A stretch of DNA of 64,000 nt from Elusimicrobiota bacterium (GTDB lineage: Bacteria; CG03; SLGR01; JAFGSA01), in the NCBI GenBank assembly GCA_016934855.1, contig JAFGSA010000024.1, positions 44,472 to 108,471 on the forward strand, in the 5' to 3' direction. This document shows, piece after piece, positions 11,793 to 42,870 of this stretch (its first letter is position 1; every line of letters starts with the position of its first letter). A program made the translations under genes and the position numbers. The notes beneath the pieces are model-generated. The model was given only the letters and a program-made list of their open reading frames with translations, ran no database searches and had not been told where the DNA came from.

Positions 11793-12566
11793 TCATTGTT
11801 TACCAGAATATTCCCTTACTCCGCCGATAAACCTTATCGCCATGACAGATGTATATAGCGCGATTATCACAAAAGACATTTCGCGCAGCCGGCTGGATGA
11901 CGATTCGCTGTTCATCAGCGCGATAATGAGAGGAAGTATTATAAAATGCATTGTGTCGCTTTTAAAAAGTTTAACATAGAGATTTACCATCAGCACTAAG
12001 ATTGATTCGGACCGGGTTTCATCAGTATCCTTTCCCGTATCGAGAAAAAGGCTGAAGAATTTCCTTTTCGCGGTTATCGGTGCTGTTTCCGATTTTTTTT
12101 CCTTAAGGGCGCACCCGAATTGGTGTATGACCCATTCAAGAAATACGGTATAGGGAATCATGAACAGGTTACCGGAGAAATAACCGAAAAGAGCCAATAT
12201 CATTCCTGCCCTGACAGGCCTGTCGCTGAACGAATCAAGTTTTTCACCCAGAAGAGACGGTTTCTCCTGCGCTCGCGCTATAGCGCCATCCGCATAATCA
12301 AGTACTTTAATAAATAATAAAAGCCCCACGGCCGCCAGCCTTAATGCAAAATATTCATTTCCAGCCAGGGTGAGCAGATAAAAACAGCCCAGCATTATAA
12401 TCACTCTTAATATAGAAACAGCATTGGCAGATAATCCTATCCTATAAAAGATAAATCCCAGCACAAGCCCGACGGGCCTGTATAACAGGGATATGAATGT
12501 ATAATTTCTGTCTTCATCCCGTTTGCTCTGGGGATATGCTTTTATTTTGAATTCTGAGTAATTCAC
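11793..12566 (-). CDS. CDP-alcohol phosphotransferase family protein
   Basis: Complete signature DYADGAIAR...GEKLDSFSD; SANAVS helix. Confidence 0.85.
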   Translation of the reverse strand: MNYSEFKIKAYPQSKRDEDRNYTFISLLYRPVGLVLGFIFYRIGLSANAVSILRVIIMLGCFYLLTLAGNEYFALRLAAVGLLLFIKVLDYADGAIARAQEKPSLLGEKLDSFSDRPVRAGMILALFGYFSGNLFMIPYTVFLEWVIHQFGCALKEKKSETAPITAKRKFFSLFLDTGKDTDETRSESILVLMVNLYVKLFKSDTMHFIILPLIIALMNSESSSSRLREMSFVIIALYTSVMAIRFIGGVREYSGKQ

Positions 12567-13243
12567 GGCAAGCTGTCCTCTGGTTTTTTTGCTCTCAGCA
12601 CAATGGAATTGACCAAGTAGAGTGCAGAACTCAACAAGATCATTGTCGTCACACGCGCTATTAATGGCCCGATTATAAATATCATGAAGTTTTCTTCGTA
12701 CGGAGAGAAAAGATACATGATCCTTTTTACACTGAAAAAGCCGGGCCTCTTTTCTGCCGGGAGCTCATCCATAGCAGGGAAATCCGTCGTGCTTGGCGGT
12801 TTTATCCTTAATATCTTTTTTATAAGAAAATGATTGCCGTAGTGTACCGCAAATAGCATGATGCCAAGTACTGTATGACCCTTTATGAAATAGAAAGAAT
12901 AAAATACTCCCAGAACTACCAGCAATTTGCCGTACGCATTCACCAGATGGTCCAGTTTCGCCCCGAGTTTCGACGGCTGCTCCCTCATCCTGGCCAGCTT
13001 GCCGTCCGTAAAATCCAGGATTATGGCAATATAGAAACACATTGAACCGGCCAGATACTTTCCGATCATAAATGAATATGACGAAAAACAATAAGAACAA
13101 AATCCCAGAACTGTAACCAGGTTAGGATGTATGAAACGCAGTTTATAGAATATTACGGCAAGCGCCATGGAAGGCGGTTCTATCAAATAAAGCGGAAACA
13201 GCCAGGTTCTTGCTCTGCTGCTCTTTATTATCCGGTCTTTCAT
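12563..13243 (-). CDS. CDP-alcohol phosphotransferase family protein
   Basis: HPNLVT and DFTDGKLAR...GAKLDHLVN. Start moved to ATG 13243 (TAATG overlap with upstream stop). Confidence 0.85.
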   Translation of the reverse strand: MKDRIIKSSRARTWLFPLYLIEPPSMALAVIFYKLRFIHPNLVTVLGFCSYCFSSYSFMIGKYLAGSMCFYIAIILDFTDGKLARMREQPSKLGAKLDHLVNAYGKLLVVLGVFYSFYFIKGHTVLGIMLFAVHYGNHFLIKKILRIKPPSTTDFPAMDELPAEKRPGFFSVKRIMYLFSPYEENFMIFIIGPLIARVTTMILLSSALYLVNSIVLRAKKPEDSLP

Positions 13244-14328
13244 TATTCTCCCCTCCTGCCGTTTTTTTCTAATACCCATTTTATGCAATTCATGAATCCG
13301 GCGGACATATTTCTGATGTTTCCCTTTTCTTCCATAGTCCTTTTCGCTTCTTCCGAAAATTTTCTATAGACCTCATCATCATGGAGAAGATACTCTATCT
13401 TCTCTCTTAACCCCGATATATCTCCCCTGGGGACCATGAACCCGTTCTTGCCCTCTTCCAGATAGAATATCTCAGGACCGTGCCAGACATCCTCGGTGAC
13501 CGTGGGGAGGCCCCAGTAGAAAGCCTGGTTTATGCCCAGTCCGTTCGCGCCAGGTATACTGAACACATCCGACATCTTGAATATCTCGTTTACCGCGTCA
13601 GGTTCGAATATAGCGCCCATATACTTCACGTTATTCATACCTTTTATCTTATCAAGCTGATCTTCCCTGATATCCGGACCCACTATTACCAATCCTATAT
13701 TATTATCTATATTTTCGAAAGCTTCTATAAGATCATCGAGCCTTTTCCTGGGCTGTATGCGCCCGACAAAAAGCACTATCTTGTCGAACTGTATTCCGTA
13801 TTTCCTGCGCAGATCCTTTTTACCCGCGGTGATTTCCGGTATCGTATCAAAATTCAACGTATTGGGAGCGATGAATATCCTGTCATGGTTCTTCTTTTTT
13901 ATGTACTTTTTCTCATTAGGCGAAAATAGGATTATTCCGTCGGATAAATTATGAAGATGCCTGAAGAATAGGTTCTTGCAAATACTATCCCTGTCCTGCA
14001 GGTTAATGCCGTGCTTCCAAATGACACAAGGTATTCTTTTTATTTTAAGCCAGTATATCAGCGGAAAAAGAACTGTATCTTTAAGATGAAGACCGAACAT
14101 CACGGCTGAAGGAGACTCCTTCTTTACCAGTGAAATACATGAACTAAGGTTCAGCTTTGTCTCGATGCATCTGAATTTTATTTCACTCTTCTGGTCATTG
14201 AATACTTTTCCCTTAGGGACTACCAGGATCAGCTCGTAACCCGCCTTTTTCGCGTCTTCCGCCAGGTAATTATTGATAGGGATGCGGTAATGCCTTATCT
14301 TATTTACAACGTACAATATCTTCTTCAT
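13243..14328 (-). CDS. Glycosyltransferase family 4
   Basis: LFVGRIQPRKRLD, DVFSIPGANGLGINQAFYWGLP, NGFMV. Confidence 0.85.
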   Translation of the reverse strand: MKKILYVVNKIRHYRIPINNYLAEDAKKAGYELILVVPKGKVFNDQKSEIKFRCIETKLNLSSCISLVKKESPSAVMFGLHLKDTVLFPLIYWLKIKRIPCVIWKHGINLQDRDSICKNLFFRHLHNLSDGIILFSPNEKKYIKKKNHDRIFIAPNTLNFDTIPEITAGKKDLRRKYGIQFDKIVLFVGRIQPRKRLDDLIEAFENIDNNIGLVIVGPDIREDQLDKIKGMNNVKYMGAIFEPDAVNEIFKMSDVFSIPGANGLGINQAFYWGLPTVTEDVWHGPEIFYLEEGKNGFMVPRGDISGLREKIEYLLHDDEVYRKFSEEAKRTMEEKGNIRNMSAGFMNCIKWVLEKNGRRGE

Positions 14329-15693: not shown

Positions 15694-16815
15694 TTATCCT
15701 GCCGTGCCGTTTATCATTTCAGCGTATTCATCCACCACTGTTTCGGCCCTGTATTCTCCGGATTTTTTTTTGTTCTCTCTTGAGAATCTTTCACTCAGAG
15801 CGCGGTCGGAAAGAAGCCGGCATATAGCATCCGCAAGCGCCTGCGGATCTTCTTTCGGAACTATAAACCCGTTTTCACCGTCCCGGATCAACTCGTGAAC
15901 CGATTCCGAATATTCAGTAGAAATTACCGGTTTGCCGCAGGCCATCGCTTCCAGGAGCACGTTCGGGAGCCCCTCCCACAATGATGAAAGAACGAATATC
16001 TCAGAACCTTTTATATAGCTATATACGTTTTCCTTGAAACCCGGCAGATCTATACTGCCCTGCAACTTGAACCGCTCTATCATTGCGGAAAGCTTTTCCC
16101 TAAGGCCGCCTTCGCCGAGTATTATCAGCCTGCATTCTGTCTTTTTCACTACTTTTGAAAAAGCCTCGATCAGGTATTCAAAGCCTTTTGCCTTCTTGAG
16201 CTTACCCGCGGCGATGACTATGGGAACACCTTCGCCGTACCAGGGGTGAACCGGCGGTTCCGCCGACAAGGTGTCTATCCTGTCTATTTCCAGGGGATTT
16301 TTCACCACTTTTATCCTGTCTTCGGATACATTAAACGCATTTACCATCTCGTCTTTTGCAGATCGCGAATTAGTGATGACAAGGTCCGCATAATTATATA
16401 CGAACCTGTGTATCCCGTATCTGAGGAAGAACAGCCCCTGTAGTCTTATTTTCACCAGTATAAGGTTCCTCACATTGGCAATGAATTTCGCGGATGATCC
16501 GGTGATCTTTTTTGCCAGAGCCGTTACTGTATTGCCGCTCCCCATAAAACTGACCAGAATATCCGGGTTCTCATTTTTTATTACGCCGCACATCCTTAAA
16601 ACAAGGCCCGGGAAAGAAAAAAACGGCTTTCTTTTCTTAAAATCATATATTTTTATGTCGCCCATAAACTCATCAATTCGGCTGCCTTGGGCCTGCAGGA
16701 GCACGAGTACGGGATCGAACCTCTCCCTGTCAAGATATTTCAATATGAGTAAAATCACCTTTTCAGCGCCGCCGGGCCTTAGCGAGTTCACAACAAAAAT
16801 GACCTTTTTTTTCAT
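15694..16815 (-). CDS. Glycosyltransferase family 4 (PglJ/WabH-like)
   Basis: GGAEKV, FVLSSLWEGLPNVLLEAMACGKPVI. Confidence 0.92.
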   Translation of the reverse strand: MKKKVIFVVNSLRPGGAEKVILLILKYLDRERFDPVLVLLQAQGSRIDEFMGDIKIYDFKKRKPFFSFPGLVLRMCGVIKNENPDILVSFMGSGNTVTALAKKITGSSAKFIANVRNLILVKIRLQGLFFLRYGIHRFVYNYADLVITNSRSAKDEMVNAFNVSEDRIKVVKNPLEIDRIDTLSAEPPVHPWYGEGVPIVIAAGKLKKAKGFEYLIEAFSKVVKKTECRLIILGEGGLREKLSAMIERFKLQGSIDLPGFKENVYSYIKGSEIFVLSSLWEGLPNVLLEAMACGKPVISTEYSESVHELIRDGENGFIVPKEDPQALADAICRLLSDRALSERFSRENKKKSGEYRAETVVDEYAEMINGTAG

Positions 16816-16848: not shown

Positions 16849-17637
16849 CTATTTCACACTATCTTGCAACCTGCCCAGCACCTCTCCCCGCATGCTTTTC
16901 AAGAACACGATAAACCCGAGCAGCGCATGCAAATACAGATATAAACGCATGTAAAGTATAATCCCGTATGCCGCATCATACTTTTCTATAACAGAAAATA
17001 CGATGAGCAGTACCGCTATATTGTCTTCCCTGCACAATATCTGCAGGCCGGTAACCGCCCTTTTCACATAACGGTTATTTATCCTGAAATATACCGCTTC
17101 CTTAAGGCTCCTCAGCTCCGGGCTCACTTTGAATACTATTGCCTTATAGCTGGACCTCGTATATCGCAGGTATATACCCAGTAGAGCTGTTGCCGAACCG
17201 ATGGCCAGGGGATGAAGTCCGTTTCCCCGTAAAGCCATGCCGATACCGACAAGGAACCAGCAGAGCCTGTATATAAAATGATACTGCGAATCGAGGAAAA
17301 CCCCCCTGAGGCTGAATATGTTTTTTATTCGCGCCAGTTCTCCGTCGACTTTATCGAGCACGATCGACAGATACAGCAATACAGCGCCGGCTAGATAAGC
17401 GCCCCTGAATAACATTACAAGACCGGCAATACATACGGCTAATACCGCGTAAGATACCGTGTCGGGTTTTGTGCCCGGGAAAACCCTCAGAATAAACCAC
17501 GTAATATATGGCGAAATCAGTCTGGGAACCCATCTTCCGTATTTAAATGTCATCTTCTGGATGACATTCTCATATTTAAGCCTTTTCGCCTTTTGTCCGA
17601 GCTCCCTGACCTGCTTCAACGTATAAAATTGACTCAT
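16849..17637 (-). CDS. CDP-alcohol phosphotransferase family protein
   Basis: KPDTVS and DKVDGELAR...GVFLDSQYH. ATG 17637 overlaps the RtcB-like stop; alternative start 17646. Confidence 0.82.
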   Translation of the reverse strand: MSQFYTLKQVRELGQKAKRLKYENVIQKMTFKYGRWVPRLISPYITWFILRVFPGTKPDTVSYAVLAVCIAGLVMLFRGAYLAGAVLLYLSIVLDKVDGELARIKNIFSLRGVFLDSQYHFIYRLCWFLVGIGMALRGNGLHPLAIGSATALLGIYLRYTRSSYKAIVFKVSPELRSLKEAVYFRINNRYVKRAVTGLQILCREDNIAVLLIVFSVIEKYDAAYGIILYMRLYLYLHALLGFIVFLKSMRGEVLGRLQDSVK

Positions 17638-18971
17638 CTGTTCCATCTCCTGTTAAATGACACCAGCGGCAGCAGCTTAACCGAATCTTTTATTATCTTC
17701 TTCCCTATGTAGAAATCTATCACCCTGTCTCCATCATGCCGGGTGTAATGCGGAACCGTCAGGGTCTTAAAACCCCCGAACATCTTTATTTCGTGAACAA
17801 ATATCTCGGTAAACCTTCCCCTGTCATCTTCTTTCTTTCCCTCGAGGTATTTTCCCAGCCCGTGTTCGGCACTGTCCAGGCTTTCAGCGGAAGATTCTCC
17901 CGGAAGGACAAGATACGACGGATGGTCATTCATCCCCGATATAATAGACCACCTGTTCCTGTAGTATTTTACGACATTATGCCGGTAGATTATTTTGCCG
18001 TCTTCATGTCCGAAATCTATATCGTTGTGAGTTCCTTCCGCTACTGGAAGGAAATTCCCCGATATATCCTCGCCGAAAACTTCTTTTACCGCATTTCTAA
18101 GCCTCATATACAGACATGCGCGCCTCAGGGAACCGAGGTTCTTAAGTAATCCCACGGCCTCTTTTATAACATCATACATCTTCTCGTTAGCCCTTATGGG
18201 CCTGTAATAATCCCGCAGGATATACTCATCCGCCATATCCTTTCTTAACATAAACTCGAGCCTGTTGCCGCAAAGATGCGCCATGACGGCCAGTTCCCCG
18301 GCTTTCAGAGACTTATTATTCATTCCGGGACCTTGAACTTCCTGAAGTTCCAAAAAGTGGTTTCCGCCGAACGTGTTCCCGATAAAACCGTTGCTGTTAT
18401 ATTTCGCCCCGTTTTTCCAGACATCCGAGTAAAATTCCTTAAATTTCAAGGCACCTCCGGCATGATTACCATCGGCCTCAAAACTGCCTTCTACTGTCTG
18501 CGCGTCTTTCTCCTCCAGGTGCATCCTGAGATAACTGCCTATGCCGCCCGAATACGCTTTTTCCCACTCGTCCCTTCTTATCCCGTACCTGCCTTTTCTC
18601 CAGCCGCCCGGATTCAGCTTCTTGTAAAGGCGGCTCGCAAGAAAATCCTGCTTGAATATCTTCTTAAAAATAACCTTGAACCTGTGAATATTCTCCTGCG
18701 TCGCTTCAAGCCCCGTTCTGAACGCGATCATTCCGCAGCCTATTCCCCTGGACCGAAGCTGCGGATACAGCAAGTCATCCGTCGACCTGATCGCGACCCC
18801 AGAAGGCACGCTGCATTTATACCCGGCATCGACATATTTGGCCTTCATGCTGACGTCCGGGAAAACCGCGACCTTCTCCACGCCGGGAAGAAGTGCGATC
18901 TCGTCAAGATATGCGCTGATATTGTCGATATCCGTGCCAGGGATAAGACATTTTATTTTATCCGAGATCAT
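17634..18971 (-). CDS. Divergent RtcB-family protein (RNA ligase / guanylyltransferase fold)
   Basis: Colinear RtcB-like motifs: FPD, GIGCGM, GGNHFLELQ, VMAH, THN, SG....SYLV, SAEHGLG, LLPLV; 445 aa. Confidence 0.82.
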   Translation of the reverse strand: MISDKIKCLIPGTDIDNISAYLDEIALLPGVEKVAVFPDVSMKAKYVDAGYKCSVPSGVAIRSTDDLLYPQLRSRGIGCGMIAFRTGLEATQENIHRFKVIFKKIFKQDFLASRLYKKLNPGGWRKGRYGIRRDEWEKAYSGGIGSYLRMHLEEKDAQTVEGSFEADGNHAGGALKFKEFYSDVWKNGAKYNSNGFIGNTFGGNHFLELQEVQGPGMNNKSLKAGELAVMAHLCGNRLEFMLRKDMADEYILRDYYRPIRANEKMYDVIKEAVGLLKNLGSLRRACLYMRLRNAVKEVFGEDISGNFLPVAEGTHNDIDFGHEDGKIIYRHNVVKYYRNRWSIISGMNDHPSYLVLPGESSAESLDSAEHGLGKYLEGKKEDDRGRFTEIFVHEIKMFGGFKTLTVPHYTRHDGDRVIDFYIGKKIIKDSVKLLPLVSFNRRWNR

Positions 18972-20344
18972 TTGTTCCTGTCAGCCTCCCAATCTGACGC
19001 GGGGTATACGCTGAAACTGCCTCTTCTGGTATCGGCAACCAGATTATGCAGAACGTTCAACTTCAGTCCCCCGATGTAATCGAACCAGGCCCTGTACCAG
19101 CCGTATACTTTTCCGGGATCTTCGTAAGCATCCAGGATCGCTGTCAGCCTTCCCGGGATATCCTTTGACGCTTTCGAGTAAACATATTCGACAGCCTTTA
19201 TTTTCCTGACAAGCCTGAACCCGGGAAGATCCAAAAGCACTTTCACTATTTTTTTAGCCTTTTTTTTCAGACCTTTTTTCTTTCTTAATATTTCTCCGTT
19301 CATCAGCTGTTTCCTTAACTTTGAGGGATCGGAATATATCGTTAAAAACGATATTTTTTCCGCGTTTTTAAGTATATCAAGCGCTTCATCGCGGTCGTGA
19401 GTCTTGGCGCTGCGGCCATAGGGACGCAGAAAATCATAATGCAGTATTATCCCTTGCGAAAAGACCGAAGAAACGCTGTTCAGCTGGCTGGACCCGAGAT
19501 GCAGCCATCCGGAAAAATCACCCACCCCCAGCTTTTCCGAGACTGCCGGGCACGAATTGGACATCATGCTTTTTATCAGAGTGGTCTTGCCGGAGGAAGT
19601 AGGCCCCGACACTACGACAAGGTGGCCTGCCCTCCTCTTCTTTGCTATCACCAGGAACCTGTCTTTAAAACCGGTCTTATAGAATCTGACATCTCCGAAG
19701 CTGTTCCGCTGGTACAAGAGCAGGTTTTTCAGGGCTTTCTCCGTAAAAAAGAATTTCTTCTGTCCGCTCAGTTTTTTCGAAGTTGCGCCCCGGCCAACGA
19801 TAACTGCCGGCGAACCCGATATAATGCTGCTTCTGAAACGCGACAGCCCAAGTTTCCTGCGGTCATGCGCGCCGAGTGTTGCCACTTCAAGCACCAGGGT
19901 TTCCCGGGTAATGCGTATCAGTTTATCCAGCACCGCGATCGGGTCTTTCATGTGATGAAGCAGATTAAGGCACAGCACGAGGTCATATTTTTCTCCCGGA
20001 TCGTCTTTCTCTATATCTCCTTTAACATATTCTATATTCAACCCCTTGATCTCGGCTATGGTCCTGGCATTATCAATGCTCTCTTCGTTTATCTCCCACC
20101 CCAGGACCCTGGACGCGCCCCTTTCTGCCGCCTTGATGCAGAAATACCCCAGATAGCTGCCTATATCCAGTACGGATTTGCCTTCAACGCCGTCAGAGAA
20201 TATCAGATCGCAGGTTTCCTTCCTTTCCGCGCCCGGTGTTGAAAGACCATAAGGAAGCTCTATCTTCTGATATTTCAGACCGGGTCTCCCGAGGAACTCC
20301 TCTATCCTGCTTTTACTCCAATCTCCCGAGTTTTTAATATTCAT
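18968..20344 (-). CDS. Fusion of a class I SAM methyltransferase (CmoB/DUF1698-like) and a P-loop NTPase/kinase domain
   Basis: YQKIELPYGLSTPG, VLDIGSYLGYF, YDLVLCLNLLHH, then VVVSGPTSSGKTT (Walker A). Confidence 0.8.
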   Translation of the reverse strand: MNIKNSGDWSKSRIEEFLGRPGLKYQKIELPYGLSTPGAERKETCDLIFSDGVEGKSVLDIGSYLGYFCIKAAERGASRVLGWEINEESIDNARTIAEIKGLNIEYVKGDIEKDDPGEKYDLVLCLNLLHHMKDPIAVLDKLIRITRETLVLEVATLGAHDRRKLGLSRFRSSIISGSPAVIVGRGATSKKLSGQKKFFFTEKALKNLLLYQRNSFGDVRFYKTGFKDRFLVIAKKRRAGHLVVVSGPTSSGKTTLIKSMMSNSCPAVSEKLGVGDFSGWLHLGSSQLNSVSSVFSQGIILHYDFLRPYGRSAKTHDRDEALDILKNAEKISFLTIYSDPSKLRKQLMNGEILRKKKGLKKKAKKIVKVLLDLPGFRLVRKIKAVEYVYSKASKDIPGRLTAILDAYEDPGKVYGWYRAWFDYIGGLKLNVLHNLVADTRRGSFSVYPASDWEADRNK

Positions 20345-20360
20345 CAATATGCTCCCCGCA

Positions 20361-21878
20361 TCACCTGTTATTTATTATTTCCTTTAATTTACCCACAACG
20401 AATGCCGCTATGCCTGCATCGGACATCTCTCTGCGGTATTTTCCTAGTGCCGCTTTTTCACCCGCGCTGAAAAAACCCGAGCAATATAGCAATACGGGGA
20501 AAAGCGCCATCAGCAGTATCTTGAATATAATCTGCAAAAGTATGCCATGCCACGGGATCAGGAATGATGCCGCATAGGCCACCCCGCCGACTGCCGTAAT
20601 ATGAAATATCCTGCCGTTCTGGAAAACCAGTCCGTAGAACCTGTTTGAAAAATAGAGCCGGAGGATATTCCACACAATATATGATATAAGCGTCGCTATG
20701 GCTGCGCCCATCATTCCCCATATAGGGATGAATAAAAAATTCAATCCTATATTTACCGCCGCCGCGGCCAGAAGATTGCCGGACCTGTGATACGATTTAT
20801 TTTTCATGATTATTCCCCAGTCGAAAAAATATCCCAGTCCATGCTGGATGTATGAAAACCCTATTACAGGCACTATGATCCAGCTTCCCCAGTATTCTTT
20901 TTTTCTTGCAAGCAGCATTATCGCTTCTTTGGAGAAAAGAGAAAGCCCCAGAACTGCAAATATTCCTGCAAGATAGAAATATGTAGCAGATCTTTTAAGG
21001 AATTCCTTCTGCTGGTCGGGATCATCTTCTTTTTTCAGGACTATCGGCCAGAGGGCATCTTTAAGGGGCTCTGCCAAGACCATTTTTATAAGGTTTCCTA
21101 TCCTGTATCCGAAGGAATAAAGCCCCACCGTCTCTACTGCTTCGAATATCCTTAAGACGTACCTGTCTCCGGACTGTATGAGCCAGTTAGAATAACTTGC
21201 AACTATCTGCGGGTACCCGTATGCAAGCGGCTCCTTTAGTATCTTATAAGATATTTTAAACCTGATATCCCTCATGATCAGCGGGATTACCATCAGTGAA
21301 AGGAATAGAAGACCGAACAGCTGTCCGTAGGCTAACGCATATACTCCTATCCTGAGTTTAACAAGCGACCAGACTATCACAAAACTCGACACGACCAGCT
21401 TCGTCAGTGACACGAAGACATAATATCTGGCCATCTCCTTAAGCATCAGATAATCCAGCAGTATAGTAGAAAAGCATTCAAGGAAAAGTATTATGGAAAA
21501 TATTTTTACTATCGGAAGGAATTCCCTTTCTCCGATCAGCGTGTTGCATAAGAAATTGCTCATACCATAATATACTGAGGTCAATATTAATGCCTGAATG
21601 ATCAGGAGTAAAAGTATATTGAACAGCAAAACGTCATTCTTCTCGATATAATCAGGTTTATAATAATACCTCCTGAATGCCTGGTTCACCGGTGAAACCA
21701 GTTTGGCTATCAATGTAACAGTAACCGTAAGCAGGGCAACTATTCCGAAATCCTTCGGGTATAGGTATGATGTATACAGCGGCAGCAGGATGATCGTGAG
21801 TATATTCTGCGCGACGTTACCTATGGAATATATACTGCCGAGAAACAGTAACTTCTTATGCTGCTTTCTTATACTCAT
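20361..21878 (-). CDS. wzx: Wzx-type polysaccharide flippase
   Basis: LLPLYTSYL.P.DFG, DRYVL...VGLYSFGY, LNFLFIPIWGMMGAAIAT. Confidence 0.9.
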   Translation of the reverse strand: MSIRKQHKKLLFLGSIYSIGNVAQNILTIILLPLYTSYLYPKDFGIVALLTVTVTLIAKLVSPVNQAFRRYYYKPDYIEKNDVLLFNILLLLIIQALILTSVYYGMSNFLCNTLIGEREFLPIVKIFSIILFLECFSTILLDYLMLKEMARYYVFVSLTKLVVSSFVIVWSLVKLRIGVYALAYGQLFGLLFLSLMVIPLIMRDIRFKISYKILKEPLAYGYPQIVASYSNWLIQSGDRYVLRIFEAVETVGLYSFGYRIGNLIKMVLAEPLKDALWPIVLKKEDDPDQQKEFLKRSATYFYLAGIFAVLGLSLFSKEAIMLLARKKEYWGSWIIVPVIGFSYIQHGLGYFFDWGIIMKNKSYHRSGNLLAAAAVNIGLNFLFIPIWGMMGAAIATLISYIVWNILRLYFSNRFYGLVFQNGRIFHITAVGGVAYAASFLIPWHGILLQIIFKILLMALFPVLLYCSGFFSAGEKAALGKYRREMSDAGIAAFVVGKLKEIINNR

Positions 21879-22732
21879 GCTCCCGCCGCTTTTTTCAGGA
21901 TCGCCACCAGCTGTTCTTTGCCGATCTTCTTAGGACCCTGGTTTATCTTGTCGTATTTCAATATTTTACCGGCTATCATTTCGGCGTTGAACCCGTCTAT
22001 TTTCGCAAAATCAGACAGCTTCCTCAGTTTTCCCACCAGCTCTTCCGTGGAATTCGCGCCGAACAGAGGAAGGAGCCCATCATAATCCATGTATTCGATG
22101 AAAAAAGGAAGCAGCATGCCGCACGCGGTCCCGTGATCTATGCCGTATTCCGTCGTAAGCGGATAGGATGATGCGTGTATCACATTCGTCTTCGAAATAG
22201 CGATAGCCTGCCCCGCAAGGTTGCCCGCCTCTATAAGCAGATATGTTTTTTCCCTGTTCCTGAAATATTTCATTATAAGCCCTATGGCTTTTTTGCAATA
22301 CTCCCGGCTCTCTTTTGTGGCGGCTGCTGACCAGAACGACTCGACCGAATGCGCAAGCGCGTCGAAGGCCGTCGACTGTATAACTTTTTCAGGGAGGTCC
22401 AGGGGGATGTCTCTCTCTATTCTCAGGACAGGTATTTCCGTAGAAACGGAAGTCTTTTCCCTGCCCCATACGGTCGCATAGGGAGTCACCGCGGCACCCG
22501 ATGCGGTAGTCGGTATGGCAATACATCTTTTATCTTTCGAGATTATCTTCGCCGTATCTATGACGCTCCCTCCCCCTATGCCTATTACCACATCTTTGTC
22601 CGTTTTTATCTTTAAAACTTCTTCGGTCGGCGGACGGGTGACCTCCAGGAACTCTACGTTCCCGTACTCGCGGGCTATTTTTTCTGCGTACACCCTGGTA
22701 TGCCTGCTATGTATTATCAGCGCTGATTGCAT
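21875..22732 (-). CDS. Iron-containing alcohol dehydrogenase, probable phosphonoacetaldehyde reductase (FomC/PhpC-like)
   Basis: GGGSVIDTAK, IPTTASG, DALAHSVESFWS, H..SYPLT..YGIDHG; next to the PEP mutase and decarboxylase genes. Confidence 0.82.
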   Translation of the reverse strand: MQSALIIHSRHTRVYAEKIAREYGNVEFLEVTRPPTEEVLKIKTDKDVVIGIGGGSVIDTAKIISKDKRCIAIPTTASGAAVTPYATVWGREKTSVSTEIPVLRIERDIPLDLPEKVIQSTAFDALAHSVESFWSAAATKESREYCKKAIGLIMKYFRNREKTYLLIEAGNLAGQAIAISKTNVIHASSYPLTTEYGIDHGTACGMLLPFFIEYMDYDGLLPLFGANSTEELVGKLRKLSDFAKIDGFNAEMIAGKILKYDKINQGPKKIGKEQLVAILKKAAGA

Positions 22733-23183
22733 TTCTGAACCTCTCTGTTATCTCCTTCGGCGAAAAAGGTATTCTGGGTGAATCTCCCTTTTCCTTGCTC
22801 ACGATTATAACTTCCGTGTTGGGTGCCAGGCTGGCGAAATCCACCATATCCGAACATGTCGGCTGTCCGCCGGTCGTACTGTGGCACCCGTTATCAAGTA
22901 TGTAGTGTTTTAAGTTGCCGGGATCGAGTTTCTTGTGGAGAACCATGGTCCCCAGGGACATGAGAGCCGCCCCATCGCCCGATATGACGATAACTTTATG
23001 CTCCGAACTGATCGCTATACCTAGGCCTATCCCGAGTGCGTTACCCATACTGCCCATCATGTAGAAATTCCGCGGCCTGTCCTTGACATGATGAAGTTCC
23101 CTTGATATCATGCCGGTTGAAGCGATGATAACTTCATCGGTCACATTTTCCATAATCTTTTTTATTGCATCTATTCTTTTCAT
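22707..23183 (-). CDS. Phosphonopyruvate decarboxylase, TPP-binding (beta) subunit
   Basis: ASTGMISREL, NFYMMGSMG, GDGAALMSLG, LDNGCHSTTGGQPT. Confidence 0.85.
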   Translation of the reverse strand: MKRIDAIKKIMENVTDEVIIASTGMISRELHHVKDRPRNFYMMGSMGNALGIGLGIAISSEHKVIVISGDGAALMSLGTMVLHKKLDPGNLKHYILDNGCHSTTGGQPTCSDMVDFASLAPNTEVIIVSKEKGDSPRIPFSPKEITERFRNAISADNT

Positions 23184-23521
23184 TGTTCTATAAGCTCATA
23201 TTTTTCATATTCCATCAGTTCCATAAGTTTCCTCGTGATGCTCCCCATGAGCGCATGGTGCTCCGGCTTATGCCTGACACTGATCAGAAGGTCCACCTCT
23301 ATTCCGTAAGGCTTATAGAGGGATGTTATTATATCGACCATATTGCCCAGTCCGCTGTTCTGCAGGAATACCAGCGGCTCTTTTCCCGCCAGGTACGCGC
23401 CGGCAGCCAGGGCGGCCGCTTCGTCTTCTCTTGTACACGGGATGTAATCCTTTATATCGGCTATAAAATCCTTCAGTTTCGAGCACGGTACGCCCGCTAT
23501 TAAATCATATTTTGCCTTCAT
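23180..23521 (-). CDS. Phosphonopyruvate decarboxylase, N-terminal (alpha) subunit
   Basis: GVPCS, REDEAAALAAGAYLAG, LQNSGLGN, PEHHALMG. Confidence 0.85.
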   Translation of the reverse strand: MKAKYDLIAGVPCSKLKDFIADIKDYIPCTREDEAAALAAGAYLAGKEPLVFLQNSGLGNMVDIITSLYKPYGIEVDLLISVRHKPEHHALMGSITRKLMELMEYEKYELIEQ

Positions 23522-23532
23522 ATTGATTTCCT

Positions 23533-23590
23533 TTCAGAATTCAGGTACAAACAGGATCTGATATCTGCTATCCGGAACCTGGTATCTGTT
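23533..23590. repeat. Degenerate 7-bp tandem repeats with inverted counterparts in the pepM-ppd spacer
   Basis: ATCTGAT ATCTGCT ATCCGGA ACCTGGT ATCTGTT at 23556-23590, preceded by TTCAGAA TTCAGGT at 23533-23546. Confidence 0.5.
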
Positions 23591-23591
23591 A

Positions 23592-24863
23592 TCATATCTT
23601 ATACCTCTTTTCTATTTCCTTGACCTCGTTTATCGGGGTGAGATCCCTGAGGTCATCCAGTGTTGCAGAAAGCTCGTTCTCTATCGGCAGCACAGAATCA
23701 TTGTCTTTGATAAGTTTCAGCCCTTTCCTTATGGCTTTTATCTTGAGCCTTTCCGTCTGGTTAGCCAGTATGACGAGCGAAAACCCGCTGTCAAAGAGCT
23801 GCCTGTTGGTTATCTGCGGAAACTTCGTCGGGACTATTACAAGCGGGATGTCGCGCTTCCAGTGTTTTGGTATATCCAACGCCTCTCGGCCGGATTCCTC
23901 CCTGCTGTGTATCATTATCATATCTGCCCCGCATTGGACATAGTGCTCCGCCCTCCTCAGCGCCTCTTCCATGCCGTATCCCCTGATAAGGGCTTCCGTT
24001 CTCGCGATAATCACAAAATCCGTGGTCTTCTGAGCATCCTTGCCAGCCCTTATCTTCATCCCGTGCTCTTCCATGGACAGCAGGGGGACCTTCCCGCCCC
24101 ATAGAGAATTCTGCTTCGGGAAAATATTATCTTCCACGGACAGCCCCGCCACCCCCGCCTTCTCGAATTCCTTTACGGTCCTTATGAAATTATGTATGCC
24201 TCCGTACCCGTTATCCGCGTCGACTATCACGGGAAGCGTCGTGGCATCCACCACCGTCTTGGCGGCGTTCAGCATCTCGGTCATCGTTATCTCGCCGTTA
24301 TCTGCCATACCCATCCGGGCAGACGCCTCAAAACCGGATATCCATATGCCGTCAAATTCCGCTTCTTCGATGAGCTTTGCGGTTATCGCATCCCCGGCCG
24401 ACACTATAACGAGCTTCTTCTTCTCCTGAAGCAGGCTCCTGAGGTTTTTTGTCTTCCTGATCTCCTTAAGGAGTTTCGTGGTAGATATATAAGGATAACT
24501 GGGCACCTGCACCACGTCGCATATCTTCTCATCCCTGGCTCTTTTATATAACGGAGGCAGCCAGTCATCGCCGTGCACGGCTACGTCGACTTTATATTTT
24601 TTCAGGTTCTCCAGCATGGCGGGAGACCTGAAATCCATACAGTCCTCGACTACCATATCCACTTCCTTTACAGCCTCGAGGATCGTCTTCCTGTCTTCGA
24701 AAGATACGATCGGCGGCCGCTTATACTTTTTTGCAACGTCGTCGGGATGCAGTCCGATGATGAGATAATCCCCCTGCTCTTTGGCTTTCCTTATGAACTC
24801 CAGGTGTCCCCGGTGGAACAGATCCCCGACCATGGTAGCGTATACTGTTTTTTTCTTTTTCAT
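23592..24863 (-). CDS. pepM: Cytidylyltransferase - phosphoenolpyruvate mutase fusion (Fom1/AepX-like)
   Basis: N-terminal HxGH domain (DLFHRGH, HGDDW, ISTT); C-terminal GIWISG, DADNGYG, EDNIFPKQNS, IARTEALI, IHSR, VPTKF, ANQ. Confidence 0.88.
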   Translation of the reverse strand: MKKKKTVYATMVGDLFHRGHLEFIRKAKEQGDYLIIGLHPDDVAKKYKRPPIVSFEDRKTILEAVKEVDMVVEDCMDFRSPAMLENLKKYKVDVAVHGDDWLPPLYKRARDEKICDVVQVPSYPYISTTKLLKEIRKTKNLRSLLQEKKKLVIVSAGDAITAKLIEEAEFDGIWISGFEASARMGMADNGEITMTEMLNAAKTVVDATTLPVIVDADNGYGGIHNFIRTVKEFEKAGVAGLSVEDNIFPKQNSLWGGKVPLLSMEEHGMKIRAGKDAQKTTDFVIIARTEALIRGYGMEEALRRAEHYVQCGADMIMIHSREESGREALDIPKHWKRDIPLVIVPTKFPQITNRQLFDSGFSLVILANQTERLKIKAIRKGLKLIKDNDSVLPIENELSATLDDLRDLTPINEVKEIEKRYKI

Positions 24864-24910: not shown

Positions 24911-25900
24911 CTACTCATAACAATATTTTTTAAGTTTCGTATATATCTCATCCATATCTTCTTTGTTTTTATATTTTTTCCATAAACCTATGTTCTTTTT
25001 CGATACATCGGGATTAAGATACTGCTTTTTATAAACATGGTGCGCTTTTTCTATCCCTGAAAATGACAAAATTATATCTATCGATCTTTCATAGTCGAGG
25101 ATCAGATTCTCAAAATTGATTCTCATTACTTTTTCCTTATTTATCTCTTCCTGATCAGCCCTGTCCATCAGACATCCGTACCATTTTATAAAATCCCCTA
25201 CATCCCGAGGGATGAATTTCCATTGTTTTGCCGCTGACTCCGCAAAAATATCCCGCGGATCTCTATGTACTACGATAATTTTTGGCGAGTTGAAATAGCC
25301 CAATATTTTGTTATAATTCAACGACGCGTATCCCGCGTCGAATACGACATGTTGCTTTCCGTGTTTCTTTTTCAACGAGTTAATGATTTCGCTCGTATAT
25401 ATCCTCGTCTGCCGATAAAAATCCTCTTTCGGGTAACTGATATATATATCCTTATTGAATTTTAATACCTTTTTACTGAAGACTATCCTGTTTACAGCAT
25501 GAATACACAAATTAAGAAAATCATCCGACCCGTACCAAATGCCCCTGTAACGGAAAAGAACCAGACTGTCTGCATAATTCCGGGATATCTTTCCGAAATC
25601 TCCGATGATCTGCTTGTTGTAGTTGACCCTGAAATAAGGGAATATATGGAATAGGCCTTTTTTACACAGGTTAATTACCAGTTTTCTGAACCTCTTTATG
25701 GCAACATCCGATTGATAAGGCGACCAGTTGTCTATTAGTGCGCTCTCCAGGCTCATTATCCCGTCCGGGTCAGTGAATATTCTGAGCTCGGTGCCTACAG
25801 GATGACAAATATCAATCTCTTTCATAAAGTCATATAACGCACCGGACCCGCTGGCGCCGAATCCGCCTATAATAATAGCATCATTATTAACATCCGCCAT
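24911..25900 (-). CDS. Sulfotransferase-like P-loop protein
   Basis: IIIGGFGASGSG (5'-PSB-like loop), VVHRDPRD (3'-PB-like), INFENLI, SKKNIGLWK. Confidence 0.7.
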   Translation of the reverse strand: MADVNNDAIIIGGFGASGSGALYDFMKEIDICHPVGTELRIFTDPDGIMSLESALIDNWSPYQSDVAIKRFRKLVINLCKKGLFHIFPYFRVNYNKQIIGDFGKISRNYADSLVLFRYRGIWYGSDDFLNLCIHAVNRIVFSKKVLKFNKDIYISYPKEDFYRQTRIYTSEIINSLKKKHGKQHVVFDAGYASLNYNKILGYFNSPKIIVVHRDPRDIFAESAAKQWKFIPRDVGDFIKWYGCLMDRADQEEINKEKVMRINFENLILDYERSIDIILSFSGIEKAHHVYKKQYLNPDVSKKNIGLWKKYKNKEDMDEIYTKLKKYCYE

Positions 25901-28348: not shown

Positions 28349-29460
28349 TCCGAATATACAGACTCGATTTTATCAGATAACTTTTCCCACGTAAATCTGC
28401 CCCTGTCTTCTACTTTTATTCCTTCTCTTTCATCCGTTAATTCTGTTACAGCGCGGGCGATGCTTTTTCCGCTTACTTCCTTGATAAGCTTTACACCCTT
28501 TATATCATCTATAATATCTAGCGCGGGCGTACTATTCGCTATCACTTTAAGCCCTGCCATTATATAGTCGAATATCTTGTTTGGTGCGCACAGGTAGCTG
28601 TTTATATCCTTATTGTCGTAAAACGCCATTGCTATATCTCCTATACACAGGGTCTGCAACATATCTGCGGGCCTTACCTTGCCGTACATAAACACCCTTT
28701 TTCCCAGTCCGTAGCGTTCAGCCATATCCTTCATTTCCTTCTCGTAACTTCCCAGGGAAAACCCGATCAGGACCAGAATATATGCCTCGGCAAGGTATTT
28801 TAACGCCTCTATCATGTCTTCTATATAGCGCTTGCTGCTTATAAGGCCCTGATAGATGATGACTTTTTTATCTTCGAATCCCAGCCTCTTTTTTTCCCGG
28901 AGCCCTTTTTCCCGGTCTATTTTCGTATATTCGGGAAAATTATTTATAACCAAGGGAACTTTATCCAGCCCGTATTTCCTGCGAAGATATTCCGCTCTGT
29001 TTTTTTCCGGTACTATGATATGATCCGCCCGCTTAATTGCAAACCTTTCGAGTATACCCCATATCAGCCTGTTTGATTTCTTCATCTGCTTTTCGGGGAA
29101 CAATTCATGCGCGTCATATATGTATTTTACGCTTTTCCACTTTTTAAGAAAATATACAGTTATGAACGTATTAAGATCGTTAAAATGACAATATCCCGGC
29201 CGGCTTTCTTTTATCTTACGCGCGGCAGCGAGACAGAATCCTATGTTACACCATAACATCTTTAAAACATTTCCGGGAAGCTTTCTGTTGTTTATTACCA
29301 GATCGACTATCTCCAGCCCTTCCTGGCTGTACGAGGAAGGCTCCCAGCTCCACGTTATAAGCTTGACCCTGAAACCCCGTTTCACCAGGCTCCTTATGAA
29401 TTTCTGGACCCTTGCATCGTAATTTACATTTCCTTTAAGCAGCATTATAACGCTTTTCAT
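28345..29460 (-). CDS. Glycosyltransferase family 4
   Basis: DARVQK, YDAHELFPE, APNKIFDYIMAGL. Start moved to 29460 (ATGA overlap). Confidence 0.88.
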   Translation of the reverse strand: MKSVIMLLKGNVNYDARVQKFIRSLVKRGFRVKLITWSWEPSSYSQEGLEIVDLVINNRKLPGNVLKMLWCNIGFCLAAARKIKESRPGYCHFNDLNTFITVYFLKKWKSVKYIYDAHELFPEKQMKKSNRLIWGILERFAIKRADHIIVPEKNRAEYLRRKYGLDKVPLVINNFPEYTKIDREKGLREKKRLGFEDKKVIIYQGLISSKRYIEDMIEALKYLAEAYILVLIGFSLGSYEKEMKDMAERYGLGKRVFMYGKVRPADMLQTLCIGDIAMAFYDNKDINSYLCAPNKIFDYIMAGLKVIANSTPALDIIDDIKGVKLIKEVSGKSIARAVTELTDEREGIKVEDRGRFTWEKLSDKIESVYSE

Positions 29461-31466
29461 ATATCGGCACCAGCACACATATCAAAATGCGCTTCATAGG
29501 GCAATTCCGATTCTACTTCCGCAAAATACCTGCCGGTTATTACCTTCGCCCCGTATTCACCGGAATATTCTATCTTATCTTCCCGCAATGCCAGGGCCGT
29601 TACGATCTTGAGTCCTTTGCCGGGCGACTCCGGAGGCCGCACAAATGACCACTGCAGCTTATGCCTGCCGGACCCTTCGAACACGTCGGATATATAAAGG
29701 TGCCCGTTTTGTCTATCGAGTCTGATCTTTCTGCGGTGTTCTACCGGCCCGTTGAGCCTGCAGAAACCCTTGTGTTTTCCTTCGAAGATATCTTCTGCGC
29801 TTTTGCTTTCCCAATTAAGGCATTTAGCCATGGAATCATCGCTCATTTTGAACAGATATTTACTATCGATCCTGTTCTGCTCTTCATTATCTATCATTAC
29901 CGTATTATGATATTCCGTGCCCCTGAACCTGTTCCTTTGCTCCGGTTCCGGTGTATAGACATAACTCCCGGGATCTACCAGTAGGTCCTTGCCGTTGACG
30001 CATAATTCGAAACTCAGCTTATCGTTATGCGCGTGCCCTCCGTTACCTGACTGACCGTTGGGACCGCATGATATTAGACAATAATTCTTCTTACTGCGCA
30101 TAACGTACCAGCCGGCATCACAGAAATTCCGGGAGCCTATATTCTCAAGAAGATTCCAACTCAATGAATTCCATATATTTATCCCTTCATTCCCATAAAC
30201 AAGGAATATTTCTGAAATATCCAGGCTTGCCCGGAAGTATTCCCTGATCTTCCATCTCTCTTCGCGGAAGAACACCGCCCCCAGAGAAAGAAGATAACGC
30301 ATATCCAGCACGTCCCTGGCATAGAATCTCAACAACTGCCCTGAATCATTATCTCCTATCTGAGGCATATTCCCGTTTGGTTTTAACAGATACATCACTG
30401 CCTCAAACATATTACGCGTACATGCCATATATTTCTTCCCGAATATGTTTTCCGCCAGACATACATGGTTTTTCCCGTCATAATCCGCATGATTTATAAC
30501 GCAAATGAGCATTGAAAAAAAGAATATCTCCAGAACCAGCCGGTGGTAGCAGGTCGATGCTTCGAAATCGCATCCGTCTTCGTATACCTGTTTTATTATC
30601 TCTTTTTTCAGTTCGTTTACTCCGAAATCCTTCCACTTCCCCGCTTCTTTAAGCTCGGGAAGCAGGGTCCCCAGGAAAATAAGCCCCGCAAGGTCCGCAA
30701 TATAATGATTCGAATTTACTCCGCCTGCCCGGCGCTCGAGATTATTCATGATGAACCGTCCGTGTTCCAGGCAGCTTTTCACAAACAGCGCTGCGAATTC
30801 ATGGGTCAAACGGCCGGACCGGCTGAAATAATAGTAAGCGTTCAGCCAGTTTACCGCCCGGATAGCTGTATCCATGGTACATCTCCAGTTTACACCGTAT
30901 CCCGCAGGGTTTTCCCTTATCCATGATCCGACCTGGCTCATAAATTCTTCTGCGTACCGTTCATCGCCGTTTACCGCATAAGCCTGCCCGAGCACCGCGA
31001 GATGCTGAAACCTGGATAATTCCCACGGCACCTTTACATCTGTCCCGCGGATATTACCGTACTCTATGTCAAAATAGTATTTCCCGGGCTCCCACCTGTA
31101 CCCCGAGTTATGATCCTTATGCCAGTCAATTTCGCCGGGAAGATTATATTCTTTCCCCAGGATCCGGAAATCATGCCTTACGACCTTATCGGCATCAGCT
31201 GTCACGCAGTCCGTGATTTCCGGCGGCAATTCGATATTCTTGCCTTGTATATTTTTCACGCTGGTCCTTGCGGAACTCCTGAAATACCTGCCTACAGATT
31301 CCATATTATCTAAATCCAGCCCGGCTTTAAAGCCGCTTTTAATAAACTTTTCGTCGGTGATATGGGCTCCGAACAAATGCGGATTCATCCTGAACAGCAA
31401 CCTTTTCGATTCACGCACGGCTTTCCCTGTTTTGGCTGAAATCAGCTTATATATGCCGGAACCCAT
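29457..31466 (-). CDS. Heparinase II/III family protein (alginate-lyase-like N-domain)
   Basis: DVKVPWELSRFQHL, NHY, EASTCYHRL, IGDNDSG, GHAHNDKLSFEL, DPGSYVY, HNTV. Confidence 0.92.
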   Translation of the reverse strand: MGSGIYKLISAKTGKAVRESKRLLFRMNPHLFGAHITDEKFIKSGFKAGLDLDNMESVGRYFRSSARTSVKNIQGKNIELPPEITDCVTADADKVVRHDFRILGKEYNLPGEIDWHKDHNSGYRWEPGKYYFDIEYGNIRGTDVKVPWELSRFQHLAVLGQAYAVNGDERYAEEFMSQVGSWIRENPAGYGVNWRCTMDTAIRAVNWLNAYYYFSRSGRLTHEFAALFVKSCLEHGRFIMNNLERRAGGVNSNHYIADLAGLIFLGTLLPELKEAGKWKDFGVNELKKEIIKQVYEDGCDFEASTCYHRLVLEIFFFSMLICVINHADYDGKNHVCLAENIFGKKYMACTRNMFEAVMYLLKPNGNMPQIGDNDSGQLLRFYARDVLDMRYLLSLGAVFFREERWKIREYFRASLDISEIFLVYGNEGINIWNSLSWNLLENIGSRNFCDAGWYVMRSKKNYCLISCGPNGQSGNGGHAHNDKLSFELCVNGKDLLVDPGSYVYTPEPEQRNRFRGTEYHNTVMIDNEEQNRIDSKYLFKMSDDSMAKCLNWESKSAEDIFEGKHKGFCRLNGPVEHRRKIRLDRQNGHLYISDVFEGSGRHKLQWSFVRPPESPGKGLKIVTALALREDKIEYSGEYGAKVITGRYFAEVESELPYEAHFDMCAGADI

Positions 31467-32670: not shown

Positions 32671-32676
32671 TTTCTT

Positions 32677-34110: not shown

Positions 34111-34113
34111 TAT

Positions 34114-38311: not shown

Positions 38312-39063
38312 TATAACTTCTTGCGGTCCTGCCTAAGAGAATCATACCACTTAACTACATCTTTAATTCCAAAGTCAGGATTCGAAGGGTAAAGATCCCT
38401 GTATAATCCAGCTATGAATTCATATTCCTTTTCCGTATCCACCGCCAGCCTTATATCGGGCCTGCGGATATTTTCAGGGCACCGGACCGTTCCCACTGTA
38501 TATTTCTGCGGATCAGGCAGTTCATTCCTATAATAGTCATAAAAATAAAGCGTCAGGTGCTCTTTCAGCCTGGTGTTGCCCTCATCTCTCCATATTTCCT
38601 CCAGGATATCCATACTGAACACCTCCGCACCGATACCTTCCGGGTAGCCGTTTCCCATGATATTGCAGAGATTTGATGAGAAATCATTCCCGTTATCCAG
38701 ATGATGTTTTATCATCCTGTCTATCTCGCCTGGCTCGGGGACAGGATTATCAGCAGGGAACCTGACTATAACATCCGCATCATATGCCTTGGCGGCAAGG
38801 TATATTCTGTCTACAACATCATTCTCGGAACCGCGGTATAAACCCGTATTGTATTCCGCCGCAAGCCCGCTCAATCCGTCGTCAGCCGCCGAATCCGTCG
38901 TAGCGAGGACGATACCGTCGGGCACCTGACACCTCTTGAGCCTTTCTATGATACGGCCGGTGAGAGGGGCTCCGGACAGGTCCATCATCGACTTGCCCGG
39001 CAGGCGTTCTGAACCCATCCTGGCCTGTATTATCGTTATTATTTTACCTTTTATCTTATACAT
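38311..39063 (-). CDS. SpsF-type cytidylyltransferase
   Basis: IIQARMGSERLPGK, RGSENDV, ADNP, EHLT, RLAVDT. Confidence 0.88.
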   Translation of the reverse strand: MYKIKGKIITIIQARMGSERLPGKSMMDLSGAPLTGRIIERLKRCQVPDGIVLATTDSAADDGLSGLAAEYNTGLYRGSENDVVDRIYLAAKAYDADVIVRFPADNPVPEPGEIDRMIKHHLDNGNDFSSNLCNIMGNGYPEGIGAEVFSMDILEEIWRDEGNTRLKEHLTLYFYDYYRNELPDPQKYTVGTVRCPENIRRPDIRLAVDTEKEYEFIAGLYRDLYPSNPDFGIKDVVKWYDSLRQDRKKL

Positions 39064-40117: not shown

Positions 40118-40151
40118 TGCATATCCCTTTCTTCTCCGCAGATACGCAGCA

Positions 40152-41000: not shown

Positions 41001-41035
41001 TTGTATACCTCCTTGCACCTGAACAGTGCCGCTTT

Positions 41036-42813: not shown

Positions 42814-42870
42814 ATCGGCCTCCTTTTCAATTTATTTTTATACTCTCAGAAGAACACTGAGTCTTATCTT

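Follow-up and report, generated by a model that had tools for sequence, protein, structure and literature searches.

Within a glycan biosynthesis cluster of an Elusimicrobiota bacterium (assembly GCA_016934855.1, contig JAFGSA010000024.1), a divergent member of the RtcB family, P0002, is encoded directly ahead of an integral membrane CDP-alcohol phosphotransferase, P0003, in which histidine takes the place of the fourth aspartate of the family signature. The analysis covered 64,000 nucleotides (nt) of this contig, referred to here as the window. The same pair of genes is conserved across distantly related loci, and the resulting two-gene module appears to be a variant form of nucleotide-activated phospho-group transfer, which would put the RtcB fold into glycan decoration. 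A third gene, encoding a methyltransferase with a P-loop domain (P0001), precedes the pair in the window; it is translationally coupled to the pair yet lies outside the conserved module. The three genes are consecutive, co-directional open reading frames (ORFs) on the minus strand, listed in the ORF table of the window at 18968-20347, 17634-18971, and 16849-17646.

18968..20344, minus strand: P0001, S-adenosylmethionine (SAM) methyltransferase plus P-loop (Walker A) domain; 459 amino acids (aa), with the ORF reaching to 20347 and the ATG at 20344.
17634..18971, minus strand: P0002, divergent RtcB-family protein (PF01139) and core of the module; 445 aa.
16849..17646, minus strand: P0003, His-variant CDP-alcohol phosphotransferase (PF01066), integral membrane; 262 to 265 aa, with the start at 17637 or 17646.

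Both junctions are ATGA overlaps of 4 nt, in which the downstream ATG overlaps the upstream TGA. The first lies at 18971-18968 (read as ...AACAAATGATCTCGG) and the second at 17637-17634 (read as ...AACAGATGAGTC); the latter overlap grows to 13 nt if P0003 starts at the upstream ATG at 17646. The ORF table and the sequence confirm this arrangement, three ATGA-joined genes behind wzx and phosphonate-type genes, as it had been described in a first-pass annotation of the window. Overlaps of this kind are ordinary in operons and are per se nothing unusual.

The conservation of the pair was assessed in metagenomes. A scan steered by the clade motif RSRG-I-x-CGM gave 45 pattern matches and, through tblastn, 10 loci, from which 8 strong loci were counted and two weak rows (L082 and L083; E values of 4e-4 and 9e-4) were left out. 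The 8 strong loci amount to 6 distinct ones, since L078 and L079 are 99.5% identical and L080 and L081 are 100% identical. In each of these six, the RtcB-like gene is succeeded, in the same orientation, by a PF01066 gene of 248 to 271 aa that encodes the His variant. In five of them the spacing lies between a 1-nt overlap and a 9-nt gap, and in L076 a 132-aa GNAT gene (L076:11062-11460) sits between the two genes. With the window counted in, the pair is linked in seven of seven distinct loci. The seven RtcB-like proteins, including that of the window, share 24 to 47% pairwise identity, and the transferases of the loci are 22 to 28% identical to P0003, so that the adjacency has outlived a long divergence of both partners. 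These observations support a functional link between the RtcB-like and His-variant transferase genes.

Beyond the pair, nothing is conserved around the RtcB-like gene. A GT4 glycosyltransferase gene follows the pair in three other distinct loci, with the GT4 of the window 16 to 18% identical to those of L076, L079, and L081. Orthology of the neighbors was considered and rejected: at 16 to 24% identity, neither the GT4s downstream nor the small methyltransferases close to the pair are orthologous. None of the six distinct metagenome loci contained phosphonate genes. No nucleotidyltransferase turned up in Pfam searches of three long loci, namely L076 (20 kb), L078 (10 kb), and L081 (13 kb), so that the activating role may be taken by the RtcB-like enzyme itself. 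The RtcB-like protein of L076 is shortened to 373 aa by a C-terminal deletion, with all catalytic residues intact.

Although highly divergent, P0002 is a genuine member of the RtcB family. It scored 53.3 bits against PF01139 (cutoff, 27) and fell below the cutoffs of the NCBIfam RtcB equivalogs (50.1 versus 407 for NF007153; 39.2 versus 271.8 for TIGR03073). As a single sequence it had no match in the PDB, and a profile of 29 clade members matched the RtcB chains 1UC2/4DWR of Pyrococcus horikoshii at an E value of about 1e-37 and yielded a residue alignment. The AlphaFold model (predicted local distance difference test [pLDDT] score, 89) gave 16 Foldseek matches at an E value of ≤0.001; among those listed, 13 of 13 were RtcB chains (template modeling [TM] scores of 0.64 to 0.69 at about 17% identity), the best being 4DWQ (E value, 5.9e-19; TM score, 0.67). 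A canonical RtcB is also encoded elsewhere in the same genome (589 bits).

Members of the RtcB-like clade are rare: a word-indexed search yielded 10 proteins, and when 1.84 billion representatives were searched exhaustively with a profile, 53 scored at an E value of ≤1e-30. Among the matches listed from a scan of species-representative genome contigs (at least 593 pattern matches and 98 relatives, all at 21 to 31% identity), there was no further clade member. A search of 61 relatives of the window's genome matched that genome alone, and none was detected in 401 genomes from the phylum of the Syntrophobacteraceae metagenome-assembled genome (MAG) G064, searched at an E value of 1e-40, or in viral contigs. 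The transferase profile gave two weak hits in 401 genomes from the phylum of the Elusimicrobia MAG G1067, both lacking the YH motif and an adjoining RtcB-like gene. Two distant RtcB-like proteins, P0010 and P0011, are 24 to 26% identical to P0002 and have Asp (VAVNDGM) where the metal-bridging Cys would stand. A reading of the pair as part of a defense system was also considered and was rejected, as PADLOC had no match for either the RtcB-like protein or the transferase.

The residues expected for guanylylation are largely retained in the clade, and Asp95 of the second metal site and the RNA-clamping Arg238 are not. Column counts were taken from the 29 aligned members, mapped by profile alignment to the RtcB of P. 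horikoshii (Pho). According to PMC9745838, metal site M1 of Pho RtcB consists of Cys98, His234, and His329 and M2 of Cys98, Asp95, and His203; Glu206 and Lys480 read guanine through N1/N2 and O6 contacts, Asn202 and Asn330 touch the phosphates, and His404 is the guanylylated nucleophile. Cys79, Asn204, His205, and Glu208 of P0002 correspond to Pho C98, N202, H203, and E206, and His232, His315, Asn316, and His370 correspond to H234, H329, N330, and H404, so that the M1 ligands and the nucleophile (C79, H232, H315, and H370) are all present. The Cys, the Asn-His pair, the Glu, the two His residues, and the His nucleophile are invariant (29/29), and the Asn330 equivalent is found in 27 of 29 members. 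The Lys480 equivalent (Pro+5) is found in 20 of 28 and is absent from P0002 and its four nearest relatives.

The Asp95 column contains no Asp at all (25 Gly, 2 Asn, 1 Ala, and 1 Ser; n = 29). P0002 has Gly76 there, flanked by Arg73 (23/29) and Arg75 (25/29). Arg is likewise absent in 29 of 29 members from the column of Arg238 (R189 in Escherichia coli), where P0002 has Asn236, with an Arg one position further on. In PMC8051266, Asn202 is described as anchoring the 5'-OH and Arg238 as clamping the first two phosphodiesters of the 5'-OH strand, and the E. coli counterpart of Arg238 has a 200-fold effect on sealing and only a threefold effect on RNAppG formation. The universal loss of Arg238 thus fits a scheme in which the last step is handed to a partner enzyme. 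Judging from these residues, the RtcB-like enzyme looks able to bind guanosine triphosphate (GTP) and to form His-GMP (guanosine monophosphate) at M1, with M2 remodeled and the RNA-strand clamp gone. Set beside canonical RtcB (PH1602, PDB 1UC2/4DWQ; E. coli RtcB; human RTCB), P0002 has the same fold, the M1 ligands (Cys, His, and His), the M2 His, the Asn pair, the guanine-binding Glu, and the His nucleophile. It differs in that Asp95 is replaced by the Gly within the clade hallmark YPQxRSRG-I-x-CGM, and Arg238 and the Arg of HGAGR are both nonconserved in the clade, where an insert of 7 residues that includes an invariant Lys also follows the PD motif. Genes of the clade lie in a context of glycan synthesis, whereas that of canonical RtcB is RNA repair or Archease.

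The partner enzyme, P0003, scored 28.8 bits against PF01066 (cutoff, 22). Its signature reads D98xxD101G102xxA105R106-x8-G115-xxx-D119-xxx-H123 (DGELAR stretch), with His123 as the fourth residue, and the cytidine motif P(D/N)xx(S/T) is present as PDTVS (residues 61 to 65). The partner-clade transferases all have D-x3-H (9/9) and keep D1 to D3 and the Gly/Ala/Arg signature; P(D/N)xx(S/T) is kept in eight of nine, with PQxxS in the other. In CDP-alcohol phosphotransferases, D1 to D3 bind metal and D4 is the likely catalytic base, whose change from D to N nearly abolishes activity, and in solved members P(D/N)xx(T/S) hydrogen-bonds the amine of cytosine (PMC4634129). Compared with the solved enzymes (AF2299, IPCT-DIPPS, and the phosphatidylinositol-phosphate [PIP] synthases; Clarke et al. 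2015, PMC4634129), P0003 shares the PF01066 domain, D1xxD2GxxAR...GxxxD3, and the cytidine motif. D4 is Asp in those enzymes and His in nine of nine members of the partner clade, and the partner gene of that clade is RtcB-like rather than a cytidylyltransferase. In NCBIfam, P0003 comes closest to archaetidylinositol-phosphate synthase (42 bits) and PIP synthase (33 bits), with all scores far under the cutoffs, and the window's other two CDP-alcohol paralogs score the same, so that these matches do not discriminate. A complex prediction for the RtcB-like P0002 with the transferase gave a score of 0.00, was made without control runs, and counts neither for nor against an interaction.

The His variant is not specific to RtcB coupling. 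More remote P0003 hits also carry D-x3-H, and a sister clade is actinobacterial: of 301 genomes from the phylum to which an Actinomycetota MAG belongs, 16 have a D-x3-H transferase gene (loci L092 to L113), with an RtcB-like gene within 1.5 kb in 0 of 15 loci. Five of the six actinobacterial loci that were annotated contain a block consisting of Fe-ADH_2 (glycerol-1-phosphate-dehydrogenase-like), the transferase, and GT2. In L109, an NTP_transferase gene adjoins the dehydrogenase gene (five loci were extended to about 16 to 17 kb, with part of the ORFs put through Pfam). The His variant therefore marks a glycan-associated branch, which in actinobacteria stands beside enzymes that could produce a small alcohol phosphate and activate it. 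By analogy, the RtcB-like gene of the RtcB-linked branch would stand at the place expected of an activating enzyme. Near the actinobacterial block there are also ABC-transporter genes and CDP-alcohol transferases of larger size, one of which carries DUF5941.

The first-pass annotation had treated all three genes as a candidate decoration pathway, with a methyltransferase/kinase, an RtcB-like activator, and a transferase. The RtcB-like gene and the transferase gene hold up as a linked pair with a retained GMP-forming core, and P0001 drops out as a conserved member. When synteny was checked, a hidden Markov model of the P0001 C terminus found no match in the metagenome loci of the RtcB-like relatives (0/8 fetched; 0/6 distinct), and no P0001-like gene was found on the sister contig L074. 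The P0001 family is instead large, uncharacterized, and independent of the pair, with at least 248 members at 37 to 56% identity. The alphaproteobacterial genome G149 (L089 to L091) has four paralogs, two of them in tandem, among genes for other methyltransferases, a sulfotransferase, GT2, and AsnB; no RtcB-like or CDP-alcohol transferase gene was found in the DNA fetched around them. One family member, P0226, carries a fused sulfotransferase domain, and another sits two genes from a sulfotransferase.

The kinase assignment of the P-loop domain of P0001 is a guess. P0001 passes the cutoffs of five SAM-methyltransferase Pfam families and belongs to class I. Its AlphaFold model (pLDDT, 90) matched methyltransferases only, over residues about 2 to 243, with VIA-align wide and with Foldseek on the whole protein. 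The second domain, of roughly 220 residues, carries a Walker A motif, GPTSSGKT (residues 248 to 255). Residues 232 to 459 gave Walker-A-level matches only in a phmmer search of the PDB, as did this domain of four family members in Pfam at E values up to 10; a protein language model search led, weakly, to nucleoside-kinase-like P-loop clusters (score, 0.91; 151 shared features). A partial likeness exists to WbdD of E. coli O9a, a kinase-methyltransferase (PDB 4AX8), in that P0001 too lies in an O-antigen-like cluster and combines a methyltransferase with a domain that may transfer phosphoryl groups. The methyltransferase domain matches WbdD with a Z score of 16.9 and a root mean square deviation of 2.7 Å over 185 residues, a result that many other methyltransferases equal. 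Where WbdD has a kinase domain, of the protein-kinase-like fold, P0001 has a P-loop domain.

From the homology, the conservation of catalytic residues, and the adjacency of the genes, which are direct observations, we infer a substrate, a nucleotide to be handed over, and an order of the enzymes. Most likely, the module, standing in a Wzx/Wzy glycan cluster, would add a phosphodiester-linked polar group to a lipid-linked repeat unit at the cytoplasmic face of the membrane. We give a probability of roughly 0.35 to a two-gene scheme in which the RtcB-like enzyme activates a phosphomonoester at the expense of GTP and the membrane enzyme transfers it. With GTP and a transition metal, the RtcB-like enzyme would form covalent His370-GMP and would then pass the GMP to a phosphate monoester, e.g., a small alcohol phosphate such as glycerol phosphate, to give a guanosine diphosphate (GDP)-linked, anhydride-activated phospho-group; these reactions would correspond to steps 1 and 2 of RtcB chemistry. 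On the membrane enzyme, an acceptor hydroxyl would then attack and the nucleotide would leave, with His123 acting as the base in place of the fourth Asp. P0001 may prepare the phosphomonoester as a local addition, in the window only.

Several points weigh against this scheme. Canonical RtcB performs all three steps alone and needs no transferase. The loss of Asp95, the M2 ligand that contacts the beta and gamma phosphates of GTP, means that self-guanylylation by the clade may not be assured. No substrate-forming gene conserved beside the pair was found in the loci examined, and the context counts leave out P0280 and P0281, the nearest homologs of P0003. The main weakness is a mismatch of nucleotides, as guanine contacts are kept in the RtcB-like clade and the cytidine pocket is kept in the transferase, such that a GDP-linked donor may not fit. 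The proposal of the first-pass annotation that a GMP adduct serves as the donor runs into the same difficulty, since the cytidine-pocket residues retained in P0003 speak against a GDP-linked donor (PMC4634129).

The chief alternative, which we consider unlikely, would resolve that mismatch by reversing the order of the enzymes. The transferase would join a CDP donor, such as CDP-diacylglycerol or CDP-glycerol from housekeeping metabolism, to a phosphorylated acceptor, as PIP, phosphatidylglycerol-phosphate (PGP), and di-myo-inositol-phosphate-phosphate (DIPP) synthases do with their CDP-activated donors and phosphorylated acceptors. The membrane-bound product would then end in a phosphomonoester, which the RtcB-like enzyme would activate with GMP and seal to a hydroxyl, on either the glycan or another unit, to create the second phosphodiester. 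Each protein would here use the nucleotide that its residues suggest, cytidine in the pocket of the transferase and guanine at the contact Glu of the RtcB-like clade (PMC4634129, PMC9745838), and a housekeeping donor would explain why L076, L078, and L081 lack a nucleotidyltransferase. Asn202, the anchor of the attacking hydroxyl in Pho RtcB (PMC8051266), is invariant in the clade, and the top NCBIfam matches of P0003 (42 and 33 bits, far under the cutoffs) are synthases with phosphorylated acceptors. However, those weak scores are equal for the window's other two paralogs, the Arg238 needed for sealing is lost in the clade, and neither a lipid-donor groove nor a gene dedicated to forming the acceptor is in evidence.

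We regard as improbable a complete three-gene pathway on the Lic pattern, in which the P-loop domain would phosphorylate an alcohol and the methyltransferase would methylate it (or a phosphonate would be used), followed by GMP adduct formation and transfer by the His variant. The ATGA coupling of all three genes in the window, the Walker A motif, and the weak language model lead to nucleoside-kinase-like P-loops would fit such a pathway. They are outweighed by the absence of the P-loop domain from the six other distinct loci (and all eight fetched), by the size of the P0001 family (at least 248 members) and its four G149 paralogs with no RtcB-like or CDP-alcohol gene in the fetched DNA, and by the fact that the domain is matched at the P-loop level only in Pfam and the PDB. 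The phosphonate branch, moreover, owns a cytidylyltransferase domain and two other transferase paralogs. A phosphonate is an unlikely substrate of the pair for related reasons: the mutase has its own Fom1-type cytidylyltransferase domain (PMC6697681), the two paralogs at 11793..13288 are likelier users of a CMP (cytidine monophosphate)-phosphonate donor, and the pair occurs without phosphonate genes. By far the least probable explanation is that the RtcB-like protein has remained a ligase for RNA repair or splicing, or has no activity, and that its position in glycan clusters is without biochemical meaning. Its PF01139 membership and the retention of most catalytic residues would be expected of such a protein, but the same transferase clade stands alongside in seven of seven distinct loci at 24 to 47% identity, Arg238 and Asp95 are lost throughout the clade, and the genome has a canonical RtcB elsewhere, with P0002 at equivalog scores of 50 and 39 bits (cutoffs, 407 and 272).

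The two-gene scheme resembles established decoration routes in logic alone. Phosphocholine decoration uses the kinase LicA, the nucleotidyltransferase LicC, and the transferase LicD. The Lic folds are absent from the trio, in which Pfam recognizes methyltransferase plus P-loop, RtcB, and CDP-OH_P_transf domains only. To our knowledge, all known routes have the head group activated by a cytidylyltransferase-type enzyme, and the RtcB family is thought to act on nucleic acids only. The LicA/LicC/LicD, TagD/TarI, and PntC or Fom1-type (Rice et al. 2019, PMC6697681) routes share with the proposed one nucleotide-anhydride activation followed by transfer to a glycan hydroxyl, as well as a similar genomic context. 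The proposed activator would differ from all of them in its covalent His-NMP (nucleoside monophosphate) intermediate and its RtcB fold, which we did not find described for such pathways in the literature searched. A search of the full-text literature, subscription journals and supplementary files aside, found nothing that tied RtcB to CDP-alcohol transfer or to phosphonate, polysaccharide, or biosynthetic gene clusters. The broader proposal, that RtcB chemistry was recruited from RNA repair to surface-glycan synthesis and that the clade makes GDP-activated head groups or ligates a phosphorylated block to a sugar or lipid, falls a little short of an even chance in our estimation. If true, it would give the RtcB superfamily its first non-nucleic-acid substrate and would establish a phosphodiester decoration route without a cytidylyltransferase; an RtcB-fold activator or ligase would mean new enzymology in glycan decoration and a new function for the family. 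Glycerol phosphate, phosphocholine, and phosphonate substituents affect how glycans are recognized by phages, immune systems, and neighboring cells.

The trio lies in a single minus-strand glycan cluster that occupies 9.7 to 28 kb of the window. In minus-strand order, it begins with genes for GT4, a sulfotransferase-like protein, the phosphoenolpyruvate (PEP) mutase fusion, the decarboxylase-like pair, an iron-containing alcohol dehydrogenase (Fe-ADH), and Wzx, continues with the trio, and proceeds to GT4, a Wzy-like protein, GT4, two CDP-alcohol transferases, UDP-glucose dehydrogenase, and a methyltransferase. The G+C content at the cluster is 0.45 to 0.49, compared with 0.41 to 0.53 across the window, an unremarkable composition. 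The neighboring features are as follows.

24911-25900: sulfotransferase-like gene of the window.
21875..24863, minus strand: phosphonate-type block upstream of wzx (Pfam and NCBIfam).
23592-24863, minus strand: cytidylyltransferase-PEP-mutase fusion (PF01467 and PF13714).
23180-23521 and 22707-23183, minus strand: split phosphonopyruvate-decarboxylase-like pair (Pfam/NCBIfam).
21875-22732, minus strand: short Fe-ADH, 285 aa.
20361..21878, minus strand: Wzx-type flippase (PF13440 and PF01943).
15694..16815, minus strand: GT4 glycosyltransferase, immediately downstream of P0003 (Pfam).
11793..13288, minus strand: two further CDP-alcohol phosphotransferase paralogs in tandem (PF01066; 49.8 and 44.9 bits).

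The end of wzx is separated from the first gene of the trio by 14 nt, a gap that contains a GGGGAG motif. The paralog at 11793-12566 has all four signature Asp residues, and that at 12563-13288 has Asn in the fourth position. The status of the fusion at 23592-24863 as a standard PEP mutase may be doubted. It scores 262 bits on TIGR02320 (cutoff, 319.55) and reads EDNIFPKQNS, with the Lys of the mutase motif EDKxxxxxNS replaced by Asn. This motif and the classes of cytidylyltransferase-mutase fusions are described in PMC6697681, as is the formation of CMP-hydroxyethylphosphonate by the cytidylyltransferase domain of Fom1. The decarboxylase-like pair, of 113 and 158 aa with a 4-nt overlap, spans only positions 3 to 121 and 171 to 297 of a 360-position profile; these short ORFs and the 285-aa Fe-ADH are either compact forms or decaying genes. 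A second glycan cluster lies on the same strand at 29457-44723 (minus) and encodes a heparinase II/III-like protein, another Wzx, NeuB, two B12-binding radical SAM enzymes, an AlgX-like SGNH protein, two CMP-sugar synthetase-like proteins, and radical SAM/SPASM proteins.

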